Shown here: piece after piece, positions 6,439 to 37,552 of the stretch
How positions within the stretch are numbered: the stretch's first letter is position 1
Layout: the number at the start of each line of letters is the position of its first letter
Assembly: GCA_019973955.1 (NCBI GenBank)
Contig: BMAV01004705.1
Span: 117,886 to 160,828 of the forward strand
Source of the DNA: Trichonephila inaurata
Lineage: Eukaryota
Reading direction: 5' to 3'
Length of the DNA stretch: 42,943 nt
Made by a program: the position numbers and the translations under genes
Notes under the pieces: generated by a model
What the model was told of the DNA's origin: nothing
What the model saw: only the letters and a program-made list of their open reading frames with translations
The model's database searches: none

Positions 6439-6591
6439 TTAGGAGCTTATTGAATCTCCTCTGTCAAGACGCTGCTTTTTGGCAGCTATAGCACCTCCAA
6501 GGAAACCTTCAGCAGTGTTGAAGAGATTGATAGGTGTATTTCCATCTGTAATCAAAGCTGATTGAATTCCAAGACCTTGGAGAAGTTTAAC
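6439..6591 (-). CDS. MVP: MVP exon 14 (last coding exon, TAA stop at 6439-6441)
   Basis: Reverse-complement translation [50 protein letters not shown] matches human [32 protein letters not shown]. Acceptor ttttttag. Confidence 0.88.
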
Positions 6592-6856
6592 CTAAAAAAA
6601 TTTACCAAAAATTAAATTTTACAATAAAAACAAATTATACATGCATATAATACGATACATATAATTACATCAAAACTTTTAATTCATCTTTTTGCCTACT
6701 TATGCTCAAACTAAGTCTGTATTTGCTTAATGTTAAAGAATAGGACCCATATTTGAAATATTTTTTCAGATATAAAACAACTGATACAAAAATTATTATG
6801 TTCAGGCTTCACTCCTTATAGAGAGCAGGATAGTGAATTGATTTATTTTTTTGGAA

Positions 6857-6868
6857 GGGGGGGGGGGG
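6857..6868 (+). repeat. Poly-G tract (12 G)
   Basis: Direct observation. Unusual in about 30% GC context. Confidence 0.9.
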
Positions 6869-8504
6869 TATAAACTGTTTTGCGTTTTTACTCGTACATT
6901 GTAAAGCTAGTTTTAACTATCCCTTTATGTGATGAAATGAAAAAAATATGTATTTATAGAATATTTTTAAATTTTAAAGCTCAGCATATAGTTTAGACTC
7001 TAAGGCAAAGACAGACTAGAGCAATACATTAGATTATTTAATGATGGTTTTTGTAATTTTCAATTTTGGTCAGATAAGAACAGCATCTTCACTGGGTACC
7101 TCACTCACAAAGCTTCTTCATTATATTTTATGAAGACTTTAGGGCTCAGTTTGATATATAACATGGACCAATTATTATTTTCTATGAAAAAATAAAATAA
7201 GAACTCAAATCTAACAGCTACAAAGTTGACTTTATCCTTGGGTAACTATAGTTTGATTTTAGTGCAAATGAAAAATCCCATTACTGTGCCAATAAAGCAC
7301 CAATTCAAGTTAAACAAAACAAACATTAAATATATAATGAAAAATGCCCTATTTATAAATTACAAAAACTAGATGTAATTAATACATTTTAACTGTTTTA
7401 TGCAAATACATATTTATAGTAATTAAATTATTATTACAATTTGTTTTACCTCATTCATATTTAACACAACAAAGGACACAAATGTATTGGAAACCTATTA
7501 ACTTCTTGAAGGGAAATTATAGAAGTGTGAACAGAAAGAATGAAATACAAAATATAACAATGGAAAAATATTTATCGTACTTATATTGCATAGTAAAATT
7601 TCACAGAAAAAAATATTAAAATTTGTAAATATCCTAGTACTTCATTAATTATAAAGCAGATAGTTAATTTCTTCAAAATTTTATGACTCATTTTTAAAGT
7701 AATTTAAAGTGCATGTGTTTAAGTTAAAATATGATAAGTTTTTATACATAAATCAAAACTTAATAGATAAACACTACTTTTTTACAGCACAAAAAACAAT
7801 TATACCATTGAAATCCACATAAACTATAATAAACTAAATTTAAAAATGTTGGAAAACTCTTTACTCACTAAGTTTAGGTTTTTAATGACAAACTCTTAAA
7901 GAATATGAAATTTCATGAAGGATTTAGTTCCATGATCAATAAAATTAAGAAAGAATTATGAGAAAAGTATATTACATGCAATGACAGACATAAAAGGTAT
8001 TAAAAAAATTTAATTATTTAAAAGTTATATAAAAAACTATCAATACAGATAATTTATGTATAAATTGAGTCCCCCTTTCATACATTTATATAATTATGCA
8101 AATTATCTTCAACACAATTTCTATAATTAAATTCAATTATGAAACAAGAAAAACATGTTTTAAATTTGGCATATTATTTTTTATTTAGTTATTTTGAGAA
8201 ATAAAACCTACTTAAATTTAATTTTATCTTTCCAGAATGAAATACATTTAGATGTGAATAAGAAAAAAAAAATTAATGTTTAAAAGTAATTCAAAATAAT
8301 TTGAAAAACATGATTGTGTGTGTGATTTACAATCTTAATCTGCCAACAAGCAGAGAATTAAAATTCAAAGAAGCCGAAGTTAAAATTTTAAAAAATTATT
8401 TAGTATTATTAACTACATCTAATTAAATAACCACTAATTCTCCCTAAATTAATTTATTCTACTTAATGAAATTAGAAAAATAAATAATCAGAATGGAAAT
8501 GTAC

Positions 8505-8693
8505 TTGAAAATCTTGTCCAGCACAAGCCACAGCTTGAATTGTATTACTTCCAAGGCTTTCAACCATACTTTTAAATTTGTGAACTTCAATATCAGCTAC
8601 TTCTTTCAATTTTTGTACATCTATATTATTTTGCTCTTTACGGTAATTTAGTTCTTCCTCTCTAGCTTTACGAAGACGCTCCAGCTCTGTTTC
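8505..8693 (-). CDS. MVP: MVP exon 13
   Basis: Reverse-complement translation ETELERLRKAREEELNYRKEQNNIDVQKLKEVADIEVHKFKSMVESLGSNTIQAVACAGQDFQ matches human [61 protein letters not shown]. Acceptor tttgtag, donor GTACAT. Confidence 0.85.
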
Positions 8694-8891
8694 CTACAAA
8701 TAGTAAATTTTTTACTGCATCCTTTTCAATTAACAGTTTTGATGCTTTATGTAACACTTCCAATTAGTAGATGATTATTCATATTATGTCCCTTTGTATA
8801 AAAGGAATATAAACCAAAATTTGAAAAAGAAATCATGTAATGTTTTCATTACAAATTATTTAAGCAAAAAAAAAAAAAAAAGTACACATTT

Positions 8892-9183
8892 ATAATAATG
8901 ACCAGTGGTGCACACAGGAATTTTTCAAGGGGAGGGGTTGAGGGTCGCAAGTTTATCATTCTTATATTGTAGCCCAATAAGCTGTCAAACATATTCTTTT
9001 GATTTTGTCAGGAAAAAAACAGTAAAAAACAAATTTTTTAATAATTAGCATTAATTAATAAAAAATAATTAATAACAAATACTTCATTAAATTTTACATA
9101 CTATATACATAGAATTATAATCAATCAAAAGAAAAAAAATCAAGGGTGATGAGGGGGGTGCTCTGCCCTTGTGTGTGCCACTG
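8892..9183. repeat. MITE-like element with CAGTGG..CCACTG termini (Tc1/mariner-type TIR) in MVP intron 12
   Basis: CAGTGGTGCACACAGG at 8892 pairs with CCTTGTGTGTGCCACTG ending at 9183. GC-rich G-run cores (caaggggaggggttgagggt and caagggtgatgaggggggtg) lie just inside each end. Confidence 0.5.
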
Positions 9184-10720
9184 AAAACAACAATACTATA
9201 ACCAATGATACATAAAACATCCATAAACAAAATCAGGTTTATGTATAGTAGAAACCTTAGAGCATTCTTACAATAAAATCTTTAGAATAAGTTGCTTAAC
9301 CCATGAGAATTAGTGCTTAAATCAATAATGAGAAAACTCAAGCATGCCTCGCTTAGCTAATTCATTAACTATTTTGGCATGTATATATGCCTTACCAAAA
9401 TGCAATCTTTTGCAATGTCATGCTATCAGTAAAACTATTCCAAATGCTTTAAAATACAATGAAATGAACTTGAGTGTTTCTGAAGGATTTATTTATTTCA
9501 CAAAAGATTTATTTAATGACACATTTACAATACGCACAATACATTGTATAACTATGAGCACCTATGTGAAAAATGGTGGCACTAGGGAGCGAATTTCATA
9601 ACATTCCTCAGCAAATAAGGGGTTAATAGCAGTGCATAATTTTGTTAAAAGTCAAGATGTATGGCTGATAAATGCAGAGGTGGAACACTAATCAGAAGGA
9701 TTTAACTAACATTAAAATGCCAGAACTCACACAATGAAAAAACTCACACTGGACATAAAATGGAAACAGTAGAACTCTGACAATAAGAATTTCTTTCACA
9801 AGAACTGATGGCCATGTGAAGAATCCCTACTAGCAAAGTACACACAAAAAGTTCATTACTATCCCTAACACTAATGAGGAGTTATAAAACTGGACAGAGA
9901 AAGCAAAACATTTGCTTATTACAATAAACACATTATGCACTTTTTAAAGCATACAAGAAAAAGTCCATGGTTCAAATTCTAGCAGGTTAAATAAAACTTT
10001 GCACTTAATGAATGCAATAATATGATATGATATAATGAATGCAATAATGAAAATATATTTAGTTTTTAAATAAATGAAGAAATTAAGCATAGTAAATATT
10101 GGTTTTTTTCATACAATCCCATAATTTCTGACTGTATTTGTAATTAAAATTATGAAGTTAAAAAGATAAAGGAAGAGAATTATGCAGTTTCAAAAGCTAG
10201 TGACTAGACGCACTTCAGGAGATGACAACAATATAAAATGAAATAAATTTTTTAATAAGGTGGCAAAAAACTCGCATATAAAATTATAAAAAAAATTATT
10301 ATTTTTGAAAAAATATATATCATTTTTCATAAATGAAAATTACATTCTTTAAAAAATTACTTTAGAAATTAATGAATAAATTTCTCTAGATTTTTAAACT
10401 GTTTTATAAAAGAAGCAATGCTTGAAAAAATGTTTAATAGTTATATGAAATGCTATACATTGATGAGATCGCAGTCATGAATGAAAATGATATTAGTAAA
10501 TATAAAAATTAAATCCTAATTTTCAAACCAGCAGCCAAGGGGGAAAAAAATATTCATGTAATTTAGAAATTAAGAAAAATGTACTAAAAGCAAAATTAAC
10601 ATAGCCATTAAAATACAAACTTGTTAAATATTTATCAAAATAATTCAAACTTAATTTACAATTCATACTTTTAACTTTGTAAAGAAAAATTAGTAATTCA
10701 CAAAACAATAAGCAACATAC

Positions 10721-10964
10721 TGCTTCAATTCTCATAGCCTCTGCCTTTGATTTAGCTTGCTCTACAGCAGCTTCAGCTTCGATTCTTTTAGCCTCTGCAC
10801 GACTCAAAGCTTCTGCTTTAGCCTGACCACAATTTTCAATGGACATGCTACTGACTTTTAATTCCAACAAACTTTTTCTTGATTTTTCTGCTTCTACTTC
10901 ATCAGATATTCGCTGTCGTTCAAGGCGACCTCGAGCTTCTTGCTCCCTTCTCTCTGCTTCATGT
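10721..10964 (-). CDS. MVP: MVP exon 12 (Ala/Glu-rich cap-helix coiled coil)
   Basis: ORF 10523..10870 plus upstream codons: (R)[81 protein letters not shown] matches human [84 protein letters not shown]. Acceptor tttgtag, donor GTATGT. Confidence 0.88.
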
Positions 10965-12590
10965 CTACAAAGAGGAGATTAAATAGATAACATTTTTGTC
11001 ATAGTAAATGCAATCACATGTTTCCAGCCAATCAGTTCATGTGTTTCATTACTGCTAACTCTTGTTTTTTTACAAAAATTTCTTTTCAAACTTTCTTTGT
11101 GTTACACCTGATATAAAAATTTTGTTTTGAAAAACTTTCTGAAGAATCTTAATTCTCAGACATCTTTATCAACCATCACATTTGAAATTGTACCTAGATT
11201 TTATAAGTACAAATCAAACATTAGCTTTGAATTCAATCACAATCACAAGATTACATGTATCATGAATTGCGCCTCATAAATTTAGCCCATTTGAAAATAC
11301 GTGTTCAACTATTATACAAAAATTATCCCATTTTTTGCATATTTATTAGTGAAATATAACAAACATTTTTCATTGTTTGATTTAAAGGTTATAATAAATC
11401 TGTAAGCACTTTCATTAGATGTTTCTTTCCCTACTACATCAATACTTTTGTAATTTGATCACCCAAGACAATGAAATAAACTACGATACACACATAAAGA
11501 ATTTCAGAAGTATTTTAAAAATTTCCATGATTTTAAGGAATGTACTTAATCACATATATAACCAAAACACAATAAAATCATATACCCAGTATCCCTGAAA
11601 ATCAATGTATTAATTTTCTCATACTTTAAACTCTGTTTACAAAAAGGGAGCAGGTAACTCAATCTCAGTCTGTTTTATAACTAATAATACCAGTATGCAA
11701 AGAAAGCTCTCTCTCAACTATGGTTACATTATTCATTGTCAGACATTTCTAAATAGCAAATTATTTTTAGAGTTTGTTTAATGATCATATACATCAGACT
11801 CTAAAGGAACCTATATTTTAAAAGTAGATTGAAACAACTCTTTTTATGATAAAGATAACTTATAACTCAGACTAGTTTACCATGCAGGAGGGAAAAAACT
11901 TTAAATAGTAGTAAATAATGACATATTGCACCTAACTACTTAAGCCAATAACAAACCATGAAAAAGAAATTATTCTATAAAAATATAACTAAAATACTGT
12001 AATTGTGGAATGAAATCCCTTTTTTCAATCTTTTGATGAAGCGAGGCCTCAACTGGTTAATTTACAAAAGTTTTTACTGTAATTTAATATAAAGTCCAAG
12101 TAGAGACAAACAACAACTTAAGAGTGACTAGTCTTTTATAGAATGAACAATAAAAATTAGATCTCTCTCAACTAACAAGAGATAATTATCTTTGGAGATT
12201 CTACAGTTTTATATCAAATTGATAAATATTAGACTAACACAACAAAAATTCAATGAGCCAATACTGAATCTCTTGTGTTTTTTGAATATATTTTGTCTTA
12301 TGAAGACACACAAACAGTTAAAAATCATGAACAATAAATGACTTAGAAGTTTGAACTAAAAAAAAAGAATGCAAATAAAATTAATGTGTTGTAAATTTTT
12401 TGGTGTCATCTAAAAAATGCCTTCAGTATCAAATGTTAACATGTGCTATTAATCTCATACTAAACTTATTTCTTCACATATTAGTGCTTAAAAGAATATT
12501 CAGTAATAATAATAACAGGGTGATTAAGTTCTCAATGTTGTATATTTTAAGACACTTTGTTTATAAAATTTTATGAGGGATGATAAAAAA

Positions 12591-13866
12591 AAAGGTTACA
12601 AGCTGCAGCATTTGAAAACTACATACTGTGGAGAAATTTTTTTTCCCCAAAGTGGAGACAGATGGGCACAACTTGTCATACAGTTGGTGTGTGGGTAGGT
12701 AGTGAAAGTTCCCAGATGGTTGAGGATGATTGAAATGGCAAGACAGAAAATTGGTCTCATTTTGAGGTGCGAGCCATGATTAGATTTTTATGGGCAAAGA
12801 ATGTGTTCACATCTGACATTCACAGTCAAATCTAAGGAAGTTGATGGTGAAGAAGCAATGAGCAGACAACAAGTAGCAAAATGGTGTCGCTCTTTTCAAT
12901 CAGACAGACAGGATGTTGAAAACTGCAATAAGGCAGGGAGCGGCCGGCCAAGTTCCTCAATGACAGAAATCAATATGGCATAAATTGAAGAAATGATTCA
13001 AAATGATCAACAGGTAACTCTGTGTGAAATGTCGCCAGTACTGGGACTGAGCTATGGTAGAGTGCAGCATATTGTTTCTGATGTGCGCCTGCTGGGTTCC
13101 ATGTGCGTTATCCAATGAGCCCAAAACCACATGAATGTGAAGTCTCACATTTCTTCATCATTATCCTTCTGATGGTCAGTACTTCATCAAACACATCGTT
13201 ATAGGGGACAAAACTTGGCTTCGCCATTTCGTCCCTAGAAGCAAAAAAGCAACCATGGAGTGGAAACACCCTACATCACCAATTTAAAAAAAATTAAGGT
13301 TACACCCTCTGCCGGTAAAGTTATGGCATTCATATTCTGGGATTCATGTGGCGTTATCCTGATTGATTACCTGGAGCATTGGCCAGACCATCAATGCAGA
13401 TCCTTATTGTGCCACTTTGACAAGGTTGCATGAAGCCATCTGATGTAAACAGTTTAGTATGTTGAGTAAAGGTGTTATCTTCCTGCATGACAATGCCAGG
13501 CCCCATACTGCTCAAGTAATGCAAAAATTGTTGCAACAGTTCAGGTGGGAAATCTGAAGTCACCCACCATACTGGCCAGATTTGGCACCCAGTGACTATT
13601 TCCTATTTCCGAGGTTGAAGGAGCACTTATCCAGCAGATGATTTTCTTCAGACAATGCTGTGAAAACATCCACCAAGACTTGGCTCAATGGACAGGGGCC
13701 TGATTTCTACCATGAAGGGTTAAGCAAGTTGGTTCTGCATTCTGATAAACACTTAAATAGACTTGGTGATTATGTCAAAAAGTGATAGGCACATATGCCT
13801 CTTAATTCTCTTTTGTATTTTCTGTCAATTGTTAATAAATATTTCTTTATTCAACTTGTAACCTTC
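12591..13866 (+). mobile_element. Mariner-like element (about 1.27 kb) with disrupted transposase, inside MVP intron 11
   Basis: Plus-strand translation from about 12726 gives MARQKIGLILRCE.., then ..RQQVAKWCRSFQSDRQDVENCNKAGSGRPSS.. (mariner HTH, cf. WF.KF.SGD..L.D..RSGRP). Further on come ITGDKTWL.., ..VIFLHDNARPHTA.. and ..HPPYWPDLAPSDYFLFPRLKEHL.. (DD..D catalytic signature). Frameshifts and stops interrupt it. The ends share AAGGTTACAAG in inverted orientation (12591-12604 and 13852-13866). Length is typical for mariner. Confidence 0.8.
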
Positions 13867-14464
13867 CTTTTTACCACCCTTCGTACTAGTATTACTATAT
13901 TAACTCAGCTGAATTTTTCTATTCCATTTTATATTAGATTAACACATTTATGCACCACTTCTACTACAAAAATTTCACTGCTTCTAAAAACAAACAATTA
14001 CATTGAAAAAAACTATAAAATTTTAAATCAATATAAATCAGATAATCACTTTAAATAAGCAGAGCATATCAATTAAAGGCTTATTTGCAATTGTAGTCTA
14101 ATATCCAAAAATGTATATATAATCCATAAAACTATTTTCAATTACAGTATTCTACTTGATTTGGCGTGTCTAATATTTGAGACTGATAATTATTTTATTG
14201 TTGAAAAATATTTTTTTTAAATTTAAGTAACTGTACATATAAATTGCATGCATCAAAATTTTTGGCAGTATATTGGCACAAATATGCTTAATACAAACTA
14301 ATTCTATCAAAGAAAAAAATTTGAATTGGTCATAATGATTCATAAAACCAAACAAAATAAATATAAATGTACAAAAAAAAAAATTTTTTTTTTTAATATT
14401 GTATTTAATGATAAATTTGTACACAAAAAAATAAATGGATATACTTTATGAACATTAAATTTAC

Positions 14465-14676
14465 CTAGCTGTGGCTTCTTGACTTTGAGTGGTAATTTCT
14501 ATAGCAAGCTGAACAGACTTTTGTAATGAATCTCTGGTTCGTTGATCTACAGGTTCAACACTTTGAATATCCACACTAGTAATATTCAGATTATTCTGAG
14601 GAAAGTTAAAAGTTCTTCTAACTTTCTTGTTTTCATCCAAGCCAAAAACAGCTGTGCGTATGATTTTGGCAGAATT
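14465..14676 (-). CDS. MVP: MVP exon 11
   Basis: Reverse-complement translation [70 protein letters not shown] matches human [53 protein letters not shown]. Acceptor tttcttccttttag, donor ag|GTAAAT (phase 2). Confidence 0.85.
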
Positions 14677-15110
14677 CTAAAGGAAGAAATGGTGCATAAA
14701 ATATACAGAACTACAAAATTTTTGAAAAAAGTTTTGCATTTTGTAGAAACATACTGCTTTTTCTCAATAAATTTCTTTTTCTAAATATTTTTTAAAAAAA
14801 TTAATCAAACACTATAATTTTCCCAATAAAAATTTCAAAATCAAAAAACATTTTCTTACATCACATTATCTAGTTTTATATATATTGATTTAGCTTCACA
14901 AAATAACAAAACTAAATGACCATACATACAACTAAATAATGTAAATTTAAGAAAATATTTTATATAATCAATTACAAAGACTTTTTTTTAAGATTCAAAG
15001 TAGTGGTTGAAACTATAAAATGTATTTGTATAAATTATTTGACAATTTTCCAAATCCTTCACAATTTCAAATTCCAAAATGCAAATCTTTACTTCTTAGT
15101 ATTCAAAAAT

Positions 15111-15600
15111 TTATTTACAAGCAAACAATCCAGAAAGCAAAATAATCACATTACCAATTAAATTGTGAAATGTGAGGGGGTACCCCTCAAAAAATACTTT
15201 TGCAGCATCAGAGCTTCTATGGTGTGAATTTTCATTCTTGATGGACGAGTGTAGAGCATCTCCCTCTTTGAGTTTAGTCCACCAAAAGGCATCATTTTGA
15301 AAGTGAGACATTTGGGAGGTTTTTTTTTAAAAAAGCAATTTCACATCTCACTCACTTTTTATAATGGCTGATTTAAGAGAACAGCGAGTGACTATGAAAT
15401 TTTGTGTGTTTCCTGTTTGGAAAAAACATCAGAGAAACAACTGTCATAATGTTGAACACGGATAGGCTATTAAAAAACACAATATACAAGCGGTTCTCTC
15501 ATTGATGAACAAATTTATGACCTTGCTTTTGCAGACTAATGATGGACCATTGATGAAATGGGGAAGTTATCTGGATTATTTAAGAGCTTGGTTCAGCTAA
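15111..15600. mobile_element. Rearranged mariner-like N-terminal (HTH) fragments in divergent orientation, in MVP intron 10
   Basis: Plus strand from 15364: MADLREQRVTMKFCVFPV.. (cf. mariner ..KQIRAIFLFEFKLG..). Minus ORF 15111..15311: ..FQNDAFWWTKLKEGDALHSSIKNENSHHRSS.. (cf. ..VQRWFKKFRSGDFSLEDEPRSGRPS..). Head-to-head arrangement around about 15330. Low-confidence family call. Confidence 0.35.
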
Positions 15601-17405: not shown

Positions 17406-17547
17406 TTTATGAAAATCATCAAAATTTGTCCCAGCAACAGAGCCACGAATTCTGGAAGCTATTGCTTTGCAAAGATCACCAATAAAATCTGGAACGCTGA
17501 ATAATTTAGCAGCTGCTTCAGGGCTTTTATCACCAATATCAAAGTAC
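17406..17547 (-). CDS. MVP: MVP exon 10
   Basis: Reverse-complement translation (W)[47 protein letters not shown] matches human [48 protein letters not shown]. Acceptor ctctgtag, donor GTATAT. Confidence 0.85.
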
Positions 17548-19854: not shown

Positions 19855-19925
19855 CAGAGGTGTCCAAACTTTTTGGGAAAAGTACCACTATCTGATTAAA
19901 AAAAACCTACGTGTGCCACTTGCAT
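19855..19925. repeat. Dispersed short repeat fragment (same family as 847-960)
   Basis: See the entry for 847-960: shared motif RGGTG.SCARACTTTT...GTAC. Confidence 0.35.
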
Positions 19926-22035
19926 TTTCAACAAACAAAAAAGTATGAAAAGTAGAAAAAAATGTTACATAAAGGTTTATCATGGGATTTTTGCACAAAT
20001 AACTTCTTTTTTTTATGCAAGTATAAGTAGAGCAAATATAATAAATAAAACCAAACTACAAAGTTAGCTTTTATTGTTAATTAACTTTTTACAGGTTCAA
20101 TGTTATATTTGGTATAAAATGAAAGTGAGTAACTTGAAAGATTTAATTTAATTCCAAATAAATATTAAATAGTCAATACTTGCTTAAGGTGGCTTTTGAA
20201 TTTGCAGTTTTTTTAATTAAGTAATCTATATTAGGATTAGATTAGAAATGGCATAATGGAAAATATTAGGAGCTCCCAGCAAAGTCAAGTTTTGGGCTTC
20301 AATTTTAAAAAGGATTATGTACTTGGGGCCAGTCAGGCATTTTTTTTTTTGGACCCCTAGAATCCACTAGGCCACTGTAAATTAGAGTTCTCTCTTCAAG
20401 ATGCTAACAAAATTGTTTTAGGTGCATATCAGTTAATTTTGAGTTTTTAATTTTATTTTGTTCATAACAGAAAACATTTGTTCACAAATATATGTTGATC
20501 CAAACCTACAGCAATATCTGACAGTCGAATCGTGTAAATTTGGAAAATTGCGTGTAGGTACAAATTTCCAAAATTCAACATAATTCGGATCACTTACAGT
20601 TAAAATAACTTCCTTATACTTGTTTTTTAGGTCACAATTGCGATTTAGATTTCAGGTGGGTAACAATCAACGTCTTGCAGAGATGTTGAAAAAGATTTGC
20701 AAAGAGAACAGCATTTTTTTTATCATCTTGAAAATTAGCAAACTTAGTACTGAACGAATCCTACAAAATGAATATTAAATTTTTTAATCTGTTATAGTTT
20801 GGAGAATTGTTAACTTTAATAAATAGTTCCTGCATTAATGGGAAAAGTGTTAATCTTTTTTGCAAAAGCCTCTTCACAAAAGAAGATATAGGACTTAACT
20901 TGCATAGGAAAAATACAATTTTTCTCTGCGATTATAAATTAAAATTATTTAAATTTTCCATAATATCGGAAAGCCAGCATACACAACATTAGAGATTGAG
21001 TCTCTACATGATTATTTTCTATTGTAATTTAATTAATTAAGTGTATTTCAAATAAATTTTGAGTGTTTTTTTTTTAGTTTAAAACAGCCGCATTTCAATA
21101 AAATTGTTAAAAAAAATTGCTAATTATCATCTTTTCAAATATTTTGAATTTTAAGCAAGTCTTCACATGCCACAAATACAACTTTGCCATTCTACACTGT
21201 GGCATGCATACCACACATTGGCCATCCCTAATCTAAACAAATTAGGAATCTTTTCAAAAGAACATTTACTCTTTCAACATTATTTTTTCATGCTTTTTAA
21301 TTCCTCGATGAAATTTTATCACAAAATATACCACTTTTGCTAAATATTACATACAATGGCATACACGAGATAGAGGTTTGAAGTTTCAAACCTCACCCTT
21401 TTTTTATCCCCATACATTTTTTGCCTACAAAACCCCTTCCATAAAAGTAGTTTTTGTACACCATTGATTACAATACTGGTCTTTGTTTTATATTCTTTGG
21501 TACAAATATAATTTCAGCAGCTAATAGAGATTACTTTTAATTTTCCCATACTCAAGCTTTTAAAACAAATTAAGAAACTTGAAATATACAAAAGAACTTT
21601 AACATGTTGACTGCCAAAAGTTAATTTGTAGTTTCCATTATTGCTCAAGACACCATTTACAAGTTATCAGGAAGTTTGTCTTTTGACTTGCCATATTTGA
21701 GCACCTAATAAAAAAAATAATAGAATAAAAAATTCGTAGAATATCAGAGTAAATATGAATTTCGTAATAGTTGTGTAATTTGTATCACACTGGATACTCA
21801 AATTTTTTTACACCAGAATCCCAAAAACTACCACGGCAGTCAAAACATGAAAAAATAATGTGCATCATAGAAGTTTTAATTCGGTTTGATTGAATGTGCA
21901 TAATTTAAAAGTAATAAAAATAAATTAAAAAAATAAACAGTTCAATTATGCCTTCTCCAGAATCAATCAAGACATAATACACATTCAAATAATTAAAAAA
22001 AAATGTTCCAAATCTTTATTTCTAAAAATACTTAC

Positions 22036-23028: not shown

Positions 23029-23042
23029 GGGGGGGGGGGGGG
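23029..23042 (+). repeat. Poly-G tract (14 G)
   Basis: Direct observation: gatgg(g)14cgaagg. Confidence 0.9.
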
Positions 23043-25788: not shown

Positions 25789-26025
25789 CTTTATAAGTTT
25801 TTTCCTTCCTAACTGAGGTTTACCATCTGTATCCAAGGGATCCAGAATAACACAATACTGACGATTAGAAAGAGTTGTGATCTTTACAATTCCTACTACA
25901 TCTTCATAAACACCAGGAATGAAAGTTTCAGTATCTGTTAATGTTATTAGCCATTCCTCCCCATTTTTCCTTGTTTTTCCAAATTCATCTACAAAAGTCT
26001 TCTTTGCTTTGACATGAACAGCTTC
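25789..26025 (-). CDS. MVP: MVP exon 5 (MVP repeat domain)
   Basis: ORF 25756..26046: [79 protein letters not shown] matches human [51 protein letters not shown]. Acceptor is a non-standard ...ttttAAG, donor GTTAGT. Confidence 0.85.
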
Positions 26026-28450
26026 CTTAAAAAAGAAAAAATACATTATGAATTTTAAACAATAACACTATAAGAAATCTGTATTTTGCTAAAAATGAAG
26101 TTGTTTTTAACCTTTGTACTACTTTACCCAACCAAAAAAGTTATTTTGTCTGTGTGAGTCTATTAAATGGTGTTGGGATCATATTTATTTTAGATCACAA
26201 TAAATTTTATAGCTCTCTACTTTTTCTTCCAAAATTATAGAAATTGGTTATGGAGGGCAGGAAAATGAGATTGTTTTCAACTTTTTTTTTACAATAGCAC
26301 ATTCATCAAAAGTGATAACTTTTTAGCTATTTAGATGGCTAGCAGAAAAATCCCTTAGAGTTAAAACAAGTTATTTGAATGGACTTTGTAACACATAAAA
26401 TGTTTTTCATGTTACAAAGTCTTTTTACTTAGTTTTAGTCTTATTAAAGATTTCTTTGAATATATATATTTCCTAAGTCAATAGATTTGTAAACAAGAGA
26501 AAAAGATACTGTAAAAACACCATTGAGCTATTAATTTAGAATAAACACAATTGCATTTTCCAAATACATAGATGAGTAATTAAAACTAATCAGTAGATCA
26601 CCAAATTAAAAAAATTATTTTTTAAAAAAAGATTTGTGATTTGACTTTGTTACTCTTACAAAATCATTATTTTACTACTCATGAATATAACTATCAATTC
26701 AACTAAATAAATTTCTCTTTTCATAAAAAAAAAAGTAAAAACAAATAATATATTGATACAGGAAAAGAATGGTTCATTGTAACACTTATTAAAAACAAAT
26801 CTGTATATAATAAACTATTACAAAGCTAAATAAGGAAAACTAATAATAGCTTTCAGGAACAACAGAATTGGAGAGGTAAATTTTTAAATTTCTCTCTCCT
26901 CTTTTGTTGGAAGCTCTTTAAATTTTAATATAATCTAGTATAATATAGAAAAGAAAGTTATATCTGGATGACATAAGCATTGGTATTGTTTGCTATTTTG
27001 CAAACTATCTGTACTTGTATTATTTTTCATGCCACTTTTTTCTGGAAAATTAATGGGAAGAGAATTTTCAGTGTAGCTTATATCAAACTACAAGTGTTTC
27101 TGTTTTCTGAAAGTTTTATTAAGAGCATGGCTATCCAACATTTCTTTGTAAATAAGAAACACGTTCAAGGATAAGAGGAAAAAACATCTAGAATTAGAGA
27201 TGACAAAATAAAAAGGCTGTTTGTGGTTGTTGGCCTATGTTTCATGTTCTGGATGAAAAACTTGCCACATGATGATCATATATATTTAAACACCTCAACA
27301 CATGGAAAAATTTTACAAATTTGTTGGAATCTGATTATTATGCCAACTTCAAAAGACTTGTATGACTTTTTGAATAAAAAAGACTGAATTCAAAAACATC
27401 CAAAAAGTTAAGAGATCCAAATCATTTGTGTATGGCTAATGGCAATGTTCTTAAAAAAATTATTTTTTCGAAACTATGTTTTTTTTTTCAGGGTTAGCAG
27501 ACCCATATATAAGCCAGCCGCATACTTTAGTTTTAAAAAAGTTACAAAAATTCTTGAATTATACAAGGAAATATATGGTATAAAAATTAATATTTAGGAG
27601 GAATATATATAAAATTATAAATCAGAAAAATGCATTGAAAACTCAATGTTAAGGACTAATTAAATTTAATGAACTATGGAAAAATATTTAAAAAGTCAAA
27701 AATAAGTTTTTTTAGCTTTGATTACATACCACAGTTCACTATAAATATATCTGCAGATTTCTCTCATTCAATGATTTTTTAAAATTTTATTCTACCATTG
27801 TTGGATACAACACTAAAGCTACTGGTAAGACTTGTAATTCTGAACCATGATGAAAGAATGAAAAGTGAAACCTGTGCTTGGACCCCATTCTTCAAAATTC
27901 CATATTCAACATGACGAATGACTATGAACCCTGACAGACTTAACATGGATCAGCTTTAGTTCTTGGCACATCTTCAATAGAATCAAAGACATGACTCACT
28001 TGAAACAGTTATCGGTTTTGAGTTCTCAAGTATGACTTTCTACACAAAGTGTTTTAATGTAAAGTTCCTCCTTCAAAAAAATTACATAATTATGTTTATT
28101 ATATAATGAACTGGCAATGAAAATGAGGAATTTTGAGAATTGCCTTTAATTAAGTCTCATAATTACAAATATCTTTATTAATATAATACATTATGAAATT
28201 TTGCATATTCAAAATTTTAAAATAGAAAAACTATTAATTTGTAAAGTAGGTTGTGACTCAGTCACACACTAAAAACATAATTTGTCTAATTTTCATTCCA
28301 AATGCATAGGGAGCACGGAATAACAAATAACTTATTATACTTTTTCAACATTTCTTTTTTAAAAAGATTTTGATAATTCATTTTTAATCAGCTATCCACA
28401 TAAAAATATTTAAAAAAGTTGAACTAAATTTAAAAAAAAAAAAAACTTAC

Positions 28451-28677
28451 TTTATCTGTTAATACATAAGCATTAACTACATCAACAATTTCTTCATAAG
28501 CTCCAGGCAAATATGCTCCAGTTTTCTTCACTATCCATTCTTCACCAGTTACTCTTTCTTTTCCATCCCTATCTACAGTTTCAGCAGTAGCTCTTAGTTT
28601 GAGGGCTTGATTAGGATTAATCACAATAGCTGAAATAGTTTCCAATACCTCTACTTCTTTCCGTGGAATAAATGTAC
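28451..28677 (-). CDS. MVP: MVP exon 4 (MVP repeat domain)
   Basis: ORF 28430..28645 plus upstream codons: (G)[75 protein letters not shown] matches human [53 protein letters not shown]. Acceptor ctcag, donor GTAAGT. Confidence 0.88.
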
Positions 28678-30190
28678 CTGAGAAGTAGATAGAAAACTTT
28701 TAACAGATGAGTAATTTACACTGCAAAATGAAAAGCAGTCAATTAAATTACCTACAAAAATTTTAATAAATATTACAGTTTATTAGTTCTGGAATAAGCA
28801 TATTTTTCCTCCTAGTGATTTAAAGCTCAAATTCTTAAAAAAAATTTGTGGCAAATTTTATAAATTTTGTATTAGAAAAAAGAAAAGTAAAAATTCTTCA
28901 CTTAAAACAATTCAACAAACCATAATTGGAAAGTCACTTTAATTAGCATCATGCTCAGTGAAAAAATAAGCTACAAGCAAAATAAAGAATTATGTTTACA
29001 CAACAAGAAACATTTTAGCTATCACTATTAACACTGCATTGAAACAATATCAATTTTCAAGAAAACATATTTTATTAATATGAGTATTCCCATAATTTTT
29101 TTTAAATTTTAGGTTATATACATGTATTACAATTCCATAAACAGTAAAATGTATATCAAACAAAAATTTGTTATAAAATATTGAACACATTTTTATTTGT
29201 TTTTGGCATTATTTTAATGTTTAATTATAATTATTACAACACATATTAATAAAGAAAAATCAAGAACCAATATAAAGCTCACATTATTAAACATGTACAT
29301 ACACAGAAAATTCAACACAACTAAAGAAGTAGCCAGAAAATTATGCCAATTTCATGGTAGGTGAACCTCACTTAGTAAAACAAATTGTGTGAAATGCTTC
29401 AGCACACATTAATGGAAAGAAACAGCAGAATAGGTAATAATTATGTTGTTATTTCTGTTAGGGATTGTCGAAATTTTGTTCTTACCTCAGAGGACACACA
29501 TAATAGCAGAGAACGCCTTGCCACCATGAATAGAGGCAATTCCAGAAGACAAATGATATTGCATGGAGACTGAATTGTGAAGGGCAAGTTGGTCCAGATA
29601 TCAAATTTTTGCTGATGCTCACCTAGATGCATCCACAGCCAATTGGCCGAGACAAAGATGGTTAAAATAAGGAAAAGTGGCCAGAGCAATGTCAGCATGC
29701 AGATATTTACATCCTTATACATCCATTGACAAGTGATGGTGGCCTTGTAAGCCATTTCTGGCACTGTATTTGAAACATGTGATATGTTACCATGTCAATC
29801 AGAATCATTAAACAAATTATGCTTATGTTTGTCTAATGATAGTAGCAATGTAGGAAGGTGGCATAAGTCCAATTTGGCTGTATCTGTGGAACATTTCACC
29901 AAGCAATATTGCTTGTGTGGTTTGGGACACAATTGCCTAAGATAGTAGATCCCCTCTGGTTCATATTCAGAGCATTATGAAGGCTTAGCGATACCTAGAT
30001 GATGTGCTGTAGCTTGTGACATTCCCCTTCCTCAAAAGGGTGCCCAATGCTCATTACCAGCAGGGAAACTCCTGACTGCACACATCAACTGAAATTTTCT
30101 CCCCGGTTATTATTCTCCAAGATTTCTCATGAACCAAACAGATCTGGGATGCAACTGGACACCACTTGCATGCCCTGTAAGGGCTGTATT

Positions 30191-30240
30191 AAAAAAAAAA
30201 AAAGAGAGAGAGAAAGAGTTGACACGAGATAGAGAGCTAT
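30191..30240 (+). repeat. A13 tract followed by (GA)n microsatellite
   Basis: attaaaaaaaaaaaaagagagagagaaagag...gatagagagc. Possibly the poly-A tail of a plus-oriented retroposed fragment occupying about 29400-30203. Confidence 0.6.
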
Positions 30241-30488
30241 TCCTCAGAATGCCATCTGTATTCCCTTCCCTTTTATTCTTTTCTTAGACATGCTGCCTCA
30301 TGTATTGCCTTTGGAGGTCGTCAAACCTAACGAGCTGACTTGTTCTCCCCAAATTATGAGTATTATCGGAAAAATCATTGATTGATCTCTCATTATCAAT
30401 ATCTCTCTCTGCTTGCCAAGTTTTTCTTTACTTTCTGACCATTCCATCTTGGTGTTGTATTTTGTATGATATTGGTCATATATATTGT

Positions 30489-30870
30489 CGACTCAGTGGC
30501 TCAGAGATAGCGTTCCTGCTTCGTGAGCCCAAGGTTGCAGGTTTGATCCCAGCTGGTCAATAGATTTTCTGGATGCAAAAATCGTAGGCACCCATGTCAT
30601 AAGATTATAAGGCATGTAAAAGATCCCTTGAGTATCAGTTTGGCTCTGTTACTCTTGACAAAATTAAAATCACTGCAAACATTCAGCATCCAACAAGAGC
30701 TTGAATTAAAATAAACTTGAGCATCAAAATTCAGTAGCGAGAGGTGCCAAAATGAAATGGCTCTCACATTTGGGGACTTGCCATGTCTGCAAAGGCTTAG
30801 CCGCTAATATGCAGCCCATTAGCATGGAAAAAAATATTGGTCATATACTGTATATGCAAACATACATATA
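30489..30870 (+). mobile_element. tRNA-derived SINE-like element (degenerate tRNA head plus tail) in MVP intron 3
   Basis: GACTCAGTGGCTCAGAGATAGCG...GGTTGCAGGTTTGATCCCAGCTGG carries a Pol III A-box-like TGGCTCAGAG and a B-box-like GGTTTGATCCCAG (cf. GGTTCGANTCC). The stems do not close into a valid cloverleaf, so SINE or tRNA pseudogene rather than a functional tRNA. The 3' boundary is uncertain (an AT/TA-rich microsatellite follows). Confidence 0.5.
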
Positions 30871-31044
30871 TATACCCATACATCTAATGTGTGTTTATAA
30901 ACACATAATACTTTATTATGTTTATTATTATTACTTTATTACTTCAGAAACAACTTATTCGATACTGTAATGAAATATGCAAAGTAATATTTCAATCTTG
31001 CATTAAAAAAGCAATACATCTTTAGTAAAATGTGAATAGCATAC

Positions 31045-31165
31045 CTGGTCCTTCAAACAACCATTCATCACCAGCAATTCTTTTGATAGTATCATCTTCA
31101 AAATCTCGAATTGCCTTGAGTCGCAAGGCAGTATTTGATGGTACAACTGTTAACGGGGTCACTTC
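31045..31165 (-). CDS. MVP: MVP exon 3
   Basis: Reverse-complement translation [40 protein letters not shown](G) matches human [42 protein letters not shown]. Acceptor ttgcag, donor GTATGC, ends phase 1. Confidence 0.85.
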
Positions 31166-32122
31166 CTGCAATGTAAATTTAATTTTTTAACTTAAATTTA
31201 TTTAAGCTGTAACAAAATTTTGTATTCAGGTGTTTAAAAAAATTTAATTTTTAAAATACTATAAAAACTTTATATATTTATTAGTTTAAAAGTTTAACAA
31301 AGTGAAATACATATAATTAAAAACATTTATATATAAATGAAACAATATTTAAAAAAATTGATTTGAGAATATTAATTCTTTCTATGGAAATTAATATTTT
31401 AAATATATAATTGTCGGTTAACAAAAATAAGCATTTCATAGTCTAAGAAAGTTCCGTATAATGCGCACCCCCTTTTTTAAGAGGAAATCTGGAATGCATG
31501 AACATAATGCTCTTATGTTTTAAACTCATTTGTCGAGGTATTATTCAAAGCTTTACAAAAAAATAGCATGCTTGTAGAATTAAAACCCTTTAAGTTCATA
31601 AGAAATGTCATTACTTTTAAATAAACTCTATTTTATCTTTATAGAGGTGTATTTTTTCCCTATATTCATCTTTTTTTTTAAAAAATTTTGAAACTCCCCC
31701 TTTTATACCCAGCGTATAAAGCACACCTGTAAATTTCGATCTTATTTTTTGTGTTAAAAGTTTGCATTTTACACCAGATTTTAGGATTAGTATAACCAGA
31801 CGTATGTCGAAACAAGTTAGCCACAGTAGTACATATATATATAAAAAACAATTTTGCTTTTTGTCATTTTTATTATAAATCTTATTTAAACTTTAAAATA
31901 CTCATTAGGAATCATTTTCAGGAATAAAAAATACCTTGAAATAGAGAATTGAAAACTGCACATAAGCAGAACATGTAAAATTTTTGGACAGAAACATTTA
32001 TTTCTAATTTTAAAAAAAAAAATTAGTATGAACCTACCAAGAATTATTGGATATTAATAGATTTAAAAAAAATAATAACATCCACTTATTTAAATACTTA
32101 AAATTAAGATTAATTTTCATAC

Positions 32123-32318
32123 CACATGAATAACTTCTCCAGGATATAATGGAAAAGGATCCTGTTGCAATCTCACTTCCAAATCAGCATGCTTTAACTT
32201 GATTTGACCAACACTATCATAAACTACAGCACTTTCGGCATTTCGAAGCACAGGATTGCGAATGATGCAATAATGATAAGGAGGAATAATAATCATATCT
32301 TGTGGTCCATGAATAACC
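32123..32318 (-). CDS. MVP: MVP exon 2
   Basis: ORF 32117..32428 contains [65 protein letters not shown] (human: ..[42 protein letters not shown]). Acceptor tttacag, donor GTATGA. High-end boundary +/-2 nt (my reading of the sequence and the ORF-track protein disagree by one base here). Confidence 0.8.
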
Positions 32319-33559
32319 CTGTAAATATATTTATATAAATATAATGCTTCTTTAAAATAAAAAAATAACAATGATATTACTTTTCTGTTAAAGCTATACC
32401 ATGCAATTTTTGTTCTAAATAGGTGCATTTGGCCTAATTTCTCTGAAAACCTTTAACTTGATATTCGATTTTTTCCCCCTTTATTTCTTTAAGCCTGTTT
32501 TCCTTTTTGCTAAATTTATAAAAGGTAAGATTTGAATTTATATTGGTTTTCTTCCTAAACCTTTCTAAAAAAAAAAAAAAAGAGAAAAATACAATAAAAA
32601 CACAGAAGCAAAAACAAAACAAATGCAACAGCCTCTATCAAATTAAATGACTAAACACAATATGCAGACCAATTATAAAAAGTTTTTCACTAGCATTGCA
32701 ATTAGCAAATGGATTATTTAAAATAAGCAAGCAATTATTTAAGAAATGCATTTAATACAGTAAAGAACATTTCTTTGGAATGCAGTGTAATGTTTTAAAT
32801 GATTTTCAATTAAATCAGGTCCAAAATGTGTATGGATAAGCTACACCTCCTTATAATTTATTCCTCTTTTTCTCTTAAACTTATATATAACCAACAATTG
32901 GATATGGTACCCATTATCGAGTTAAATAAAAGAAAATTACAGCTATAAATATTCATATAGGCAACTTGTGAGCTCATATTTTATATAAACTCCAATAATC
33001 AAGAAATATAATGGTTTCATTAACAACAATCTTTTGCATCAAACTATAAAAATTTTTGTTACATGTATGAAATAACAAGGAAAAAAAAAACATTCTCTTC
33101 AATTTCACAATACAATCATACAAAACCTATCATAAGTTAAAAAATATATCCTAAATTATTATTATTTTGCTTTATGAATAAAATACTTTCATCTATTTAA
33201 CTTTTTGTGGTCATCAATTATGATTATAAATACACAGTAGTTAAAATTGACATTTCATAAATTGCACATAAAAATTATACCCTAAAATATTTTCATTTAA
33301 AATCTTTTTCAGAAGACTTAATTAAATTTCCTAAACAAGAAAATTTTCTTTTAATTGATAAAAGATGAACAATCTTTTGCCATAATATGAAAAAGCATAA
33401 TGCAATTAAAGGAGAAAAAGTACCTTCTTTTATATTTGCTTTAGATTACCTAAAGGTTTAATATGATAGAAAGCAAGTAAATACTAAGTCACTGTTGATG
33501 TACAACTACAAGGGTCAACTAAGAAATAAAGATCATTTAATTATATGAAATAAAAAACA

Positions 33560-34395
33560 CAATATTCATTGGGGGGAAAAAATTCGGTCGCAAACCAGAA
33601 GCTTCCTTCACTGTACTATATAATCATTACCTTCATTTAAACATTTGTTGTATCTGTTAATGAGCTTCAGAATTTACATGTTATACTCTTCTGCTGCATT
33701 TATTAAGTCATGTGTTCACTACGTCCAGACAAAAGATTGCTCCCACATTTTAGCCATGTACGTCACTCCTCTTACTCTTTTCAGGATCAACTAGCTTTCA
33801 TAATGTGTTTCCACTGTGAGAGCAGGTTGGAAGAAGTCCCCCTTGTACAATTGGAGTGGTCAAAATGAAATCAGACCTTGCAAGACATGCATGCAACTTT
33901 TGACAAATTGCACATTTTGTTTCCAGACATTTCTCATTTTTTGTTTAGTGAAGAAGTGTCACAACATTTCAGTTACAACAAAATTTGTGCATGACGGTTT
34001 CTGTAACAACTCTGAAAGACCAAATCAAAACTAAGAGAATGGACTCAGCATTAACACTCTTGGCATATCACACAGACTTTCAAAGGAACACTTTCTTGAT
34101 CAGACTGTGACTGGTGATAAGACCTTGGTGTCTTGAATCACCCCAAAAAGCAAGCATCATTCATTTGAGTGGCATCATCCCTCATCAGCCACAAAAACAG
34201 AAAATTCAGACTCTCTCAAAATGAAAGATCTTGGCAACTATCTTTTGGGATAAAAAAAAAAGTGTTCCTTTAGAGGATTTCATGCCAAAAGACACTTCAA
34301 TCAAAGCAAACTGTTTTGTGAAACTCAAGGAAATTACAGCAAGCCATCCAAAACAGGAGGTGAGGTCATTCACATGAGGTATTTAAAAAAAATTA
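33560..34395 (+). mobile_element. Second mariner-like transposase fragment (3'-truncated, degenerate) in MVP intron 1
   Basis: Plus-strand translation ..KKCHNISVTTKFVHDGFCNNSERPNQN...FLDQTVTGDKTLVS*ITPKSKHHSFEWHHPSSATKTENSDSLKMKDLGNYLLG.KKSVPLEDFMPKDTSIKANCFVKLKEI. This follows the mariner pattern FLDRIVTGDE.W..YD.E.K.QS.EW....P..KK.....GKV...VFWD..G. Stops are present and the DD..D region is absent. Boundaries are approximate. Confidence 0.55.
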
Positions 34396-35880
34396 ATCAA
34401 AGAGTAAAACATACTTGTAACATTCTTTAGTGATCAGTTTCTCTTTATGAAACATGCTTACAAAAATAAGTTACAAAAATTGAATCAGAACACTAAATAC
34501 AATTATGATTTTTTGCTACTTGGAAATAAATTTCAAGTTGATTATTTTTTTAACCTAAATAAAATGTTAGAAATTCAAAGATTATTCAAGCATATTATGA
34601 TGTACAGTTGTAAAATCAGGGTCATTTGTTATAACAGGGTTCCAAACAAAATACAAATTTTTTGCACTTACATTATGGAAATTCTATAAGCAAATATGCA
34701 AAAAATATCCATAGTTAGAAATTGCATACTTTTTATTCATCAGCTAAAAATATTATTAGTGAATTATTATGTGCTGGTGAATTGGAAATTTTAATATACT
34801 GACTAAAGATGTGCTTGAAAGTCTTCTTGATTCCTGACTCACAAAAGTTCTTCTTTTGACTTCATGCAGAGAAGAAAATACTGTATGATTTACATCCTGC
34901 AGCATAAGAGAGGGGTATGTTTTCACAGTTTCCAAACAATAAAAAACATCAGAAAATGTAAGAGTTTTGATATTAATTTCATTATCAATTTCAGCATTGG
35001 AATTGCTACTTATTGGCTCCAATAAATAACGATTCCTTCAACATCAGTTGTACAGATAGGCAGTTTGTCATCAAATGTATCATTATCATTAAAATCTTAA
35101 AATATCAACCGCATTGCAGATTGGAATGATGGGTTAATGAGCTTACTGTTACCTATCCTGCTCATGATGGGTTACACTCATGACTCATCTACACCTGTAA
35201 AGTATAATAATGGTCTTCACCATTGCCTGTACAAATTTGCTGCTTACAAGAAGTCTTATTCTGTTCTTGCCAAAAAGGATGTCGTTTGAAAAAAAAAATT
35301 TTTTTTCCCAATACAATCTTATAAAAAAAATTACAGCTGCCAAAATAATTCACTAATTCGGGGTTTATTATTCCTTAAATAAGATTTTTTTATCTTCCTT
35401 TTAATTGGGGAAAGAGAAAGATTCATTAAATCATGAAATTTGTTAAATAGGAGTCCGAACGTATATGCATTACAATTGTCTTGTTAAAAGAAGTGACTGT
35501 GCGGTTTGGTGACTTTGCATAATACACAATTGCCATTGGTTGCTACTAATAATATCTGAGCACATACACACACAAAATTTAACATTTCATTAAATTGAAA
35601 TTTTCTGATTATCTCATACATTATAGTAGTATCAATTTCTTTTACATACTTTTCATTTTTCAGCCTTTTTTATTAAATTCATTTTCTGTTTGTTTTAAAA
35701 AAATTTCCTAGGCTAAACATTAAACCTTTTATTTAACTAAAAAAATACACCCATTTTTTTACTCTTTAAATTTTTTTATGCTTGCATCAATGAAAATAAT
35801 TCCTTTTAAATGTACAACAGGAGAAATTTCATAAAATGTAACAAAAAAGAAAACATTTAAAAGATTGAATACTCTAGACC

Positions 35881-36625
35881 ATCAGTTCTTAAACTGTGGT
35901 ACGTGAACCCCTGGGGGTCCCCAGCACCTTTCTAGGGGATCTGCAAAGGTCTCTCTCATTTAATATTCTTACTTTAACAGACTCTGAAAAGCCTCGCGGT
36001 ATAATGAAAAGATGTGCCAACCAAGTCTAGATCACTGAATTACCTACAATGAAAAACCTCTACATGCATTCTGATCAAGAATATTAACTTAGTTTTTTAT
36101 TGCTTAGCCATAATTATAATTTCATTTCAAACTTTAGGGTACACTTGCAGGAAAATGTTTCCAAGTTATCCATGAAAGCTCTGATGCCTTTCCAAACTAC
36201 TGATTTATGTGAAAGAACATTTTCAGCTCTATTTTATCTTAAAAATAAGTGCAGAAACCATAGAACTGGAATTGCAACTGCGAATTACAAATATTGCACC
36301 TGCTATAACAATATTTGTAAAATAAATGCAGCCCATTCCTTCTCATTAAAAATTTTAATTAATACAGTTAAATATGTTACTTGGAATGAGTATTTGGAAA
36401 TATTTTGATATGATTAGATGTTAACAGTTTTCTTAAAAAGAAAAAAAAAAAGAAATGTTAAAAAGTCTATAAGTAGCAGAGGCAGTTTTAGGATTATTGA
36501 GGAACCTTTAAATCACTCATTCATGTGTTGGGAGTCAAGGAGGGGTATTCAAAATCTTGGGGGTCCATGATGTCAGGCTGATAGATAAAGGGGAGCCGTA
36601 GCAGTCGTACATTTAAGAACTGCTG
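35881..36625 (+). mobile_element. Non-autonomous hAT-like element retaining a fragment of the hAT C-terminal dimerisation domain
   Basis: Terminal inverted repeats CATCAGTTCTTAAACTGTGGTACG (35881-) and CGTACATTTAAGAACTGCTG (-36625). Flanking 8-mers CTCTAGAC and CTCAACAC (6/8 identical) are consistent with an 8-bp hAT target-site duplication. Internal ORF 36100..36408 (..MPFQTTDLCERTFSALFYLKNKCRNHRTGIATANYKYCTC..) resembles the hATC motif (..P.TYLCE.AFS.L..IK.K.RNRL..). Confidence 0.5.
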
Positions 36626-37391
36626 CTCAACACTCCTACTCACTTCAATCTTTGAAACTGAATTTTAACTACTGACTTATACTTTTTCTCTACATAAAAA
36701 ATACAATTTCTATTTTTTTTAAATAAATATTTTAATTAATTTATCCCTCTTATTTCTAGCATGTATATTATATAGATAGATAGATGAAATGTACACAATT
36801 AGTAATTTTTTATCAAAAAATATTATTTAATGCAGTTTTATTCATTACACATTAAATTTTACAGCAATAAAATAAAATGCACTAAATATTCAAACATGAT
36901 TAAAAACTACATTAAACATCACATAATCCATGAAGATAAAAATACAAATTATATTTTGAATGGATTGCATTTCTCTAAAAGATGAATGTGCAATAAAATA
37001 TTTCAGAATATGATAATTGTCATATGCAAAATAAAATTGTTTTTAAAAATTTTTTCTTGAAAAAAAGTTTATACCTATAATTTTACAAATGCTCAAACAT
37101 TAAATAAAATTTTGATGACTTATTTTTTCCAGTACAAAATGCTTTACTCTTTCTTTCATAACTATTATTTCAATTTCCCTTTTATAAAAATATCAAACAA
37201 AAAGAATAATATAATTTGTATGAATAAAATGTATTAAAACGCATTAAGCTTTGGAACAAGGCTTTTCAAAATATACAGTGTGAAATTATTCAATGTACAA
37301 AGATATAAATTTTTAAAGCCTCAAAGCCTTTTAAAGCCATTTTTAATTCCTCAAGCATAAATGTTCTTAATTTTTAAGTGAAAAACCATAC

Positions 37392-37552
37392 CGTTCATTT
37401 TCTTGACGAATATAGGTCTTTGGTCCAATTTCAACTCTAGTTATATTAGTTGTTTGATCCAGAACATGCATATATTTATAGGGTGGTATTCGAAAGATGC
37501 TTTCCTCAGAGTGCCCTTTGAAAGATGCATTTGAATCCTTTGGAGGTGCCAT
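37392..37552 (-). CDS. MVP: MVP exon 1 (start codon 37550-37552; ends phase 2 within Arg codon)
   Basis: ORF 37367..37552: [54 protein letters not shown] matches the MVP N-terminus ([33 protein letters not shown]). Donor GTATGG follows aac-g. Confidence 0.85.

Follow-up and report, generated by a model that had tools for sequence, protein, structure and literature searches.

The spider Trichonephila inaurata carries an apparently complete and intact gene for the major vault protein (MVP) on the minus strand of a 42,943-nt stretch of DNA (assembly GCA_019973955.1, contig BMAV01004705.1, positions 117,886 to 160,828 of the forward strand), referred to here as the window. Its 14 coding exons encode 874 residues and, judged from its sequence, the product is MVP: vault repeats, shoulder, cap-helix and cap-ring are all present, and the protein is collinear with known MVPs over its full length. 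We put the probability that the gene is a functional MVP orthologue, in Trichonephila inaurata madagascariensis or in a relative with an identical protein, at about 0.95. The gene is already annotated in GenBank under its correct name, and nothing is newly discovered; the 874-residue product is identical to residues 96–969 of GFY45221.1, 'major vault protein [Trichonephila inaurata madagascariensis]', a 969-residue entry with 95 further residues at the N-terminus. This is a known member of a well-known family in a documented lineage, and only the 5' end of the gene adds anything new.

Gene structure

The minus strand was scanned for stop-to-stop open segments, and the AG and GT sites within each segment were then listed. 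Between 37567 and 6442 there are 14 open segments with clearly MVP-like peptides, and the listing left just one acceptor/donor chain that is consistent in phase. The resulting coding sequence (CDS) of 2625 nt comprises 874 codons followed by TAA and has no internal stop codon. All 13 introns are of the GT...AG type with pyrimidine-rich acceptors, and the splice dinucleotides are intact at 26 of 26 sites. The introns range from 444 to 5073 nt and sum to 28,489 nt of the 31,114-nt gene span. GC content is 28.4% across the window (23–36% in 2-kb bins), 27.2% in the introns and 37% in the CDS.

The donor of exon 2 was the sole ambiguous junction, with candidates at 32135, 32126 and 32123. With splicing at 32123 (GTG/gtatga), the protein is as long as its orthologues and agrees with the GenBank sequence. 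The donors at 32135 and 32126 were rejected, as they give a protein 4 or 1 residues shorter than all spider orthologues and fail to reproduce the GenBank sequence. A preliminary description, read from the raw sequence, had proposed 14 coding exons at 6439–37552 and an uninterrupted frame of about 874 residues in an AT-rich invertebrate-type genome. The exon count was exact and the splice chain unique, the limits run precisely from the stop codon to the ATG, the frame holds exactly 874 residues, and the invertebrate is a nephiline spider of the low GC content given above.

Table 1 Features of the MVP locus of T. inaurata, in window positions (aa, amino-acid residues of the 874-residue product)
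Feature	Position	Strand	Remarks
Conserved 5' block	40604-40830	-	40-nt windows mostly 85-95% identical to T. clavata (other long pieces ~81%)
Upstream mini-exon	40686-40606	-	encodes ..KIKLRFTPTFILELDDINWPQLLTSF-G in frame; used by GenBank models
Inverted CCAAT	40626-40632	+	GGCCAAT on + strand (ATTGGCC, Y-box-like, on gene strand); invariant in four spiders from three families
Coding exon 1	37552-37392	-	aa 1-54; ATG 37552-37550; 98% in tblastn with T. clavata MVP
Coding exon 2	32318-32123	-	aa 54-119; vault repeat R2 (Vault_2)
Coding exon 3	31165-31045	-	aa 120-160
Coding exon 4	28677-28451	-	aa 160-235
Coding exon 5	26025-25789	-	aa 236-314
Coding exon 6	24896-24765	-	aa 315-358
Coding exon 7	24320-24171	-	aa 359-408
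Coding exon 8	22298-22036	-	aa 409-496; variable loop 450-475 and Vault_3
hAT dimerisation-domain-like fragment, intron 8	20436-20651	-	weak, under the Pfam cut-off
Coding exon 9	18969-18772	-	aa 496-562; end of R9 and start of shoulder
Coding exon 10	17547-17406	-	aa 562-609; shoulder
Coding exon 11	14676-14465	-	aa 610-680; end of shoulder, start of cap-helix
Decayed mariner-like transposon, intron 11	12572-13885		~1.3 kb; 34-nt terminal inverted repeats, 79% complementary
Coding exon 12	10964-10721	-	aa 680-761; cap-helix
Coding exon 13	8693-8505	-	aa 762-824; cap-helix to cap-ring
Coding exon 14	6591-6439	-	aa 825-874 and TAA; cap-ring and short basic/acidic tail

Domains and predicted fold

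Five Pfam vault families matched the protein well over their gathering cut-offs: Vault (4.7e-68, 225 bits, four stretches), MVP_shoulder (PF11978, SPFH-like; 5e-53, 178.6 bits, residues 536–653 against profile positions 1–118 of 118), Vault_2 (5e-35, 120 bits, two stretches), Vault_3 (1e-33, 115 bits) and Vault_4 (4e-21, 75.5 bits). Band_7/SPFH gave a weak match of 18.5 bits, under its cut-off. When the PDB was searched with phmmer, human MVP was the best match (E = 0, 1166 bits, about 60% identity, query residues 15–857 against chain residues 3–851), and the human, rat and rabbit proteins each gave E = 0 across query residues 15–857. Matches of this strength greatly exceed chance expectation. 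Small insertions and deletions relative to human MVP are confined to the R8 loop and the shoulder, and the cap-helix/cap-ring region aligns to human residues 647–851 free of gaps. The motif LITDGxxPxNLFxTA is kept, and most of its positions do not vary among 108 MVPs; the spider protein also holds the residues invariant across this set, as it must by the definition of that list.

An AlphaFold model built from the 108-sequence alignment was used for structural comparison. Its mean predicted local distance difference test score (pLDDT) was 74, with values above 85 for most of residues 21–390. A first run with a 9-sequence alignment (mean pLDDT 47.8) was discarded and kept out of the fold search. 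The model has helices at 654–719 and 727–808, followed by cap-ring elements. The top Foldseek matches in the PDB were all MVP (E 2e-80), and comparison with the murine R1–R7 crystal structure (3GNG/3GF5) gave a TM-score of 0.88 and a root-mean-square deviation of 3.1 Å. Domain limits were taken from the Pfam match and, via the alignment, from human MVP, and are approximate: N-terminal beta-sandwich vault repeats extend to about residue 535, followed by the shoulder at 536–653, the cap-helix at about 653–808 (about 155 residues), the cap-ring at about 809–851 and a short tail. The underlying rat MVP domain boundaries are reportedly those of Tanaka et al. 2009. The collinearity with vertebrate MVP stated in the preliminary description is borne out, with repeats, shoulder, cap-helix and cap-ring following one another in order in Pfam, in the PDB alignment and in the predicted fold; the spliced CDS matches every Pfam vault family and aligns to solved MVPs over nearly its full length.

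The mammalian proteins (PDB 4V60, 4HL8, 9BW5 and 9Z4W) share about 60% identity with the spider protein across residues 15–857, with every domain present. The spider protein differs in having 12 extra residues at the N-terminus, a shoulder loop shorter by 10 residues (at about query residue 626) and a different R8 loop (450–475). SPFH/Band 7 proteins (flotillin, HflK/C, prohibitin and stomatin) resemble the shoulder and cap-helix in Foldseek (E 1e-4 to 1e-2), but they lack vault repeats and share only 11–19% identity, a likeness at the level of the fold and not one of membership.

At the C-terminus, a basic/acidic tail of 23 residues stands in place of the Pro/Gly-rich tail of human MVP. Tail length was compared in 125 MVPs, mostly from invertebrates and with the query and its close relatives among them; the median length after NLFxTA was 22 residues. 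A basic cluster occurs in 64 of the 125 tails, followed by acidic and serine residues in the examples shown, and the spider tails carry the motif K[KR]QRxD[SR]. The short basic/acidic tail is thus, on sequence comparison, normal for invertebrate MVPs and no peculiarity. The C-terminus quoted in the preliminary description was correct, and the tail described there as short has the usual length for invertebrate MVPs. The human tail, which we take to be about 48 residues long and rich in proline and glycine, would on that assumption be the outlier and the derived state.

Orthologues and purifying selection

A protein search returned 2544 MVPs, the top matches being spiders. Identity to the query was 97% for Trichonephila clavata, 86% for Caerostris and Argiope, 83% for Oedothorax, 80% for Uloborus and 78% for Parasteatoda, so that T. 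clavata MVP (GFR31627.1/GFR31630.1) and the other spider MVPs span 78–97% over the full length. Horseshoe crabs and a scorpion share about 70% identity with the query, and molluscs, echinoderms, cnidarians and others 66–69%. The 90% cluster of the best match includes the annotated MVPs of T. inaurata madagascariensis, T. clavipes and Nephila pilipes, and a preprint describes nephiline genomes including that of T. inaurata madagascariensis (bioRxiv 10.1101/2021.04.22.441049). Daly et al. in 2013 reported MVP from no arthropod (PMC3762200). A 2024 survey found MVP orthologues in 41 ecdysozoan taxa, Chelicerata among them, and losses in Pterygota, Acari, Malacostraca and others (PMC11219742), in line with the lineage losses recounted in the preliminary description. 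An MVP in a spider is expected and already published.

The window and the T. clavata locus are collinear and share about 81% identity over the pieces aligned by BLAST (80–84% for most long pieces). The CDS is 95.6% identical between the two species, and the individual exons 92–99%. All 14 exons are of equal length and align free of gaps, and every AG/GT dinucleotide is conserved. The 14-coding-exon structure is common to the window and to the three loci examined, those of T. clavata, Oedothorax and Caerostris, and the exon boundaries in the latter two are the same as in the window. By the Nei-Gojobori method, the synonymous (dS) and nonsynonymous (dN) divergence from T. clavata is 0.173 and 0.013, respectively, a dN/dS of 0.076.

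These values support the view that this MVP copy is intact and under strong purifying selection, and with it the intact gene of the preliminary description. A pseudogene that merely looks intact, either unexpressed or recently inactivated, could be suspected in a gene whose introns have gathered transposon insertions. Such a copy should not, however, show 2625 nt free of stops and frameshifts, a full set of splice dinucleotides, exons at 92–99% identity in aligned DNA averaging about 81%, and the invariant or near-invariant residues of 108 MVPs. The dN/dS is 0.076 at a dS of 0.17, and the gene is therefore not a pseudogene; on this comparative evidence, that explanation appears effectively refuted, and we regard it as extremely improbable. 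A contaminant and a second diverged copy were considered and rejected as well; the grounds for setting aside these readings and the pseudogene were, together, the dN/dS, the synteny with T. clavata and the lack of further strong tblastn matches in the window.

The 5' end of the gene

The ATG at 37552 is most likely the start codon, although this assignment is less certain than the rest of the gene model. The acceptor AG is found 2 nt before it, making 37554 the first base of the exon. About 3 kb further upstream, tblastn with the T. clavata protein located a mini-exon (Table 1) that ends in the donor G/GTAAAA. Its peptide, RFTPTFILELDDINWPQLLTSF, is identical between T. inaurata and T. clavata, and in-phase joining to the acceptor yields Gly-Met. 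Within the mini-exon no ATG is in frame, and a stop codon precedes it at 40699–40697. The last 27 residues of the N-terminal extension of GFY45221.1 correspond to window positions 40690–40604. The first approximately 66 residues were not found by tblastn of the window; they come from an exon outside it and have no counterpart in T. clavata, which makes them probably non-coding.

The 969-residue GenBank protein may itself be the true product, in which case translation would begin in the exon beyond the window and continue across the mini-exon into MAPPK.... The open frame of the mini-exon and its in-phase junction agree with this, the extension including, for example, the peptide FTPTFILELDDINWPQLLTSFGMAPPK. 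The residues D-W-P-P-L are common to the predicted N-termini of Caerostris and Oedothorax, and RefSeq isoforms of Argiope and Parasteatoda have short extra N-terminal peptides. In addition, the mini-exon differs from that of T. clavata by two substitutions, both synonymous when read in the annotated frame, and by an indel of 6 nt that preserves the frame. Thin as this support is, the pattern weakly favours coding and speaks against the non-coding reading of the mini-exon that is preferred below.

Several observations nevertheless make the 969-residue product unlikely. T. clavata GFR31627.1 (947 residues) also has an N-terminal extension, of 73 residues, and both GenBank models enter the mini-exon from exons further upstream, but the parts of the two extensions upstream of the mini-exon are unrelated (MARLLLISPV... 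in T. inaurata and MNWGLYAVV... in T. clavata). A second T. clavata model, of 879 residues, lacks the extension and starts 5 codons before the conserved MAPPK, reading into the intron. Spider N-termini align at MAPxK, and the Uloborus and Limulus proteins begin at that position. In a DNA alignment of four spiders, Caerostris and Oedothorax among them, the conservation of D-W-P-P-L shrinks to an invariant ATTGGCC, an inverted CCAAT, amid divergent sequence. Finally, conservation runs far past the mini-exon, as it would for a promoter or 5' untranslated region (UTR): the conserved block reaches well upstream of it and contains a second consensus donor, G/GTAAGT, at 40725/40724.

Given the conservation beyond the mini-exon and a four-spider core reduced to ATTGGCC, the block at 40604–40830 is therefore read as a promoter with a non-coding leader, and translation as starting from the ATG at 37552. 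The block is a candidate for the core promoter together with the first non-coding exon, or leader. The mini-exon is probably 5' UTR, and the 95-residue GenBank extension is most likely translated 5' UTR and not true coding sequence. In human, the MVP gene comprises 15 exons, and its TATA-less promoter contains a Y-box, an inverted CCAAT (PMC7916137). With 14 coding exons, at least one exon upstream of them and an inverted CCAAT within the conserved 5' block, the spider gene offers a parallel that is suggestive by analogy. The stronger proposal, that the block is the real spider MVP core promoter and leader and that its ATTGGCC is the equivalent of the Y-box used by YB-1 in human, is speculative, and we hold it with low confidence.

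Upstream of the conserved block, at 41003–42943, collinearity with the 10 kb that precede T. clavata MVP is lost. Positions 41067–41450 match part of an intron of T. clavata MVP (L001 20487-20876) in the orientation opposite to that of the collinear pieces, and are for this reason taken to be a dispersed repeat. A relatively GC-rich segment at about 41630–42090 has long open frames on both strands and no Pfam match.

Intron expansion and transposons

The MVP gene spans 31–33 kb in Trichonephila, against about 10 kb in Caerostris and about 15 kb in Oedothorax. As the same 14-coding-exon structure is so much shorter in the latter two, the intron expansion is specific to the nephiline lineage. 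In Oedothorax the genes next to MVP are EMC1, RPL23A and one with a NAC/HYPK domain; the window showed none of the three.

Intronic blocks of more than 200 nt each that do not align to T. clavata add up to about 8.9 kb. One of them, at 12564–14017 in intron 11, contains the mariner-like element (Table 1), in which a Transposase_1 remnant at 13260–13433 scores over the Pfam cut-off and further mariner-like open reading frame (ORF) fragments lie on both strands. The element is absent from the orthologous T. clavata intron, and its insertion is therefore considered lineage-specific. A second block, of 1.4 kb at 19855–21231 in intron 8, holds the hAT-like fragment, and a third, of 3.5 kb at 33497–36964 in intron 1, contains ORF fragments (34759–35037 and 36100–36408) that appear transposon-like by eye. 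Ten intronic or flanking ORF fragments were searched against Pfam, and seven gave no match, including 34759–35037, 36100–36408, 29444–29794 and a 134-residue ORF at 41644–42048. ARAGORN found no transfer RNA (tRNA) in the window, so that there is no clear tRNA-derived short interspersed element, and Tandem Repeats Finder reported two trivial AT-rich arrays and nothing else. The preliminary description of the introns as laden with transposable elements holds in part: one mariner element with terminal inverted repeats and a Pfam-significant remnant, a weak hAT fragment and the unaligned blocks agree with it.

Two further repeat-like sequences were observed. Some 4 kb past the stop codon of MVP, a fragment on the minus strand at 2094–2399 resembles a Tc1/mariner-type DDE_3 domain (E 6e-4, below the Pfam cut-off). 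At 30360–30650, translations of both strands contain motifs such as ..PKVAGLIPAG.. and resemble read-through of a tRNA-derived short interspersed element; ARAGORN gave no tRNA there.

Function and significance

By homology, at about 60% identity, 78 copies of the spider MVP would assemble into a 13-MDa vault shell of two halves with 39-fold symmetry. As in the rat and human structures (4V60 and 9BW5; reviewed in PMC7916137), the N-termini would meet at the waist and the cap-helices would bundle at the two caps. The vertebrate shell encloses PARP4, TEP1 and small vault RNAs (PMC7916137). Assembly of vault particles in the spider is an inference by homology, and some points weigh against a full functional reading: the exon junctions and the transcription start were placed from consensus and conservation only, with the junctions backed by conservation in three other spiders and by the match to the deposited protein model; and an Rfam scan of the whole window at gathering thresholds returned no RNA family and no vault RNA, although neither vault RNA nor PARP4 and TEP1 would be expected to be linked to MVP in this window.

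The protein might alternatively be a paralogue recruited to a role outside the vault, as reported for the MVPs of an extracellular cement of the salmon louse. Copepod MVP paralogues with an extracellular location do exist (PMC11219742), but the window holds a single MVP locus, syntenic and orthologous to the one T. clavata locus that was examined, and the N-terminus is polar, with no obvious hydrophobic signal-peptide stretch on inspection by eye. The protein is also as conserved as those of species with proven vaults (66–69% identity to molluscs, echinoderms and cnidarians), and a recruited paralogue is very improbable. A functional MVP orthologue therefore remains the preferred reading.

The reconstruction confirms that a raw-sequence reading made with no tools is able to rebuild a 14-exon gene exactly. 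In practical terms, the N-terminal extensions of GFY45221.1 and GFR31627.1 are probably spurious annotation artefacts, and work on vault regulation outside vertebrates has a candidate promoter element in the conserved 5' block with its inverted CCAAT. Should the promoter and leader reading be true, several of the spider MVP models on deposit would owe their N-terminal extensions to read-through of a promoter or 5' UTR. The gene itself is one more verified case in which arachnids have retained the vault shell protein, lost in winged insects, a pattern already in print in 2024. If the spider ATTGGCC were indeed equivalent to the human Y-box, control of vault expression by NF-Y/YB-1 would be ancient in bilaterians.

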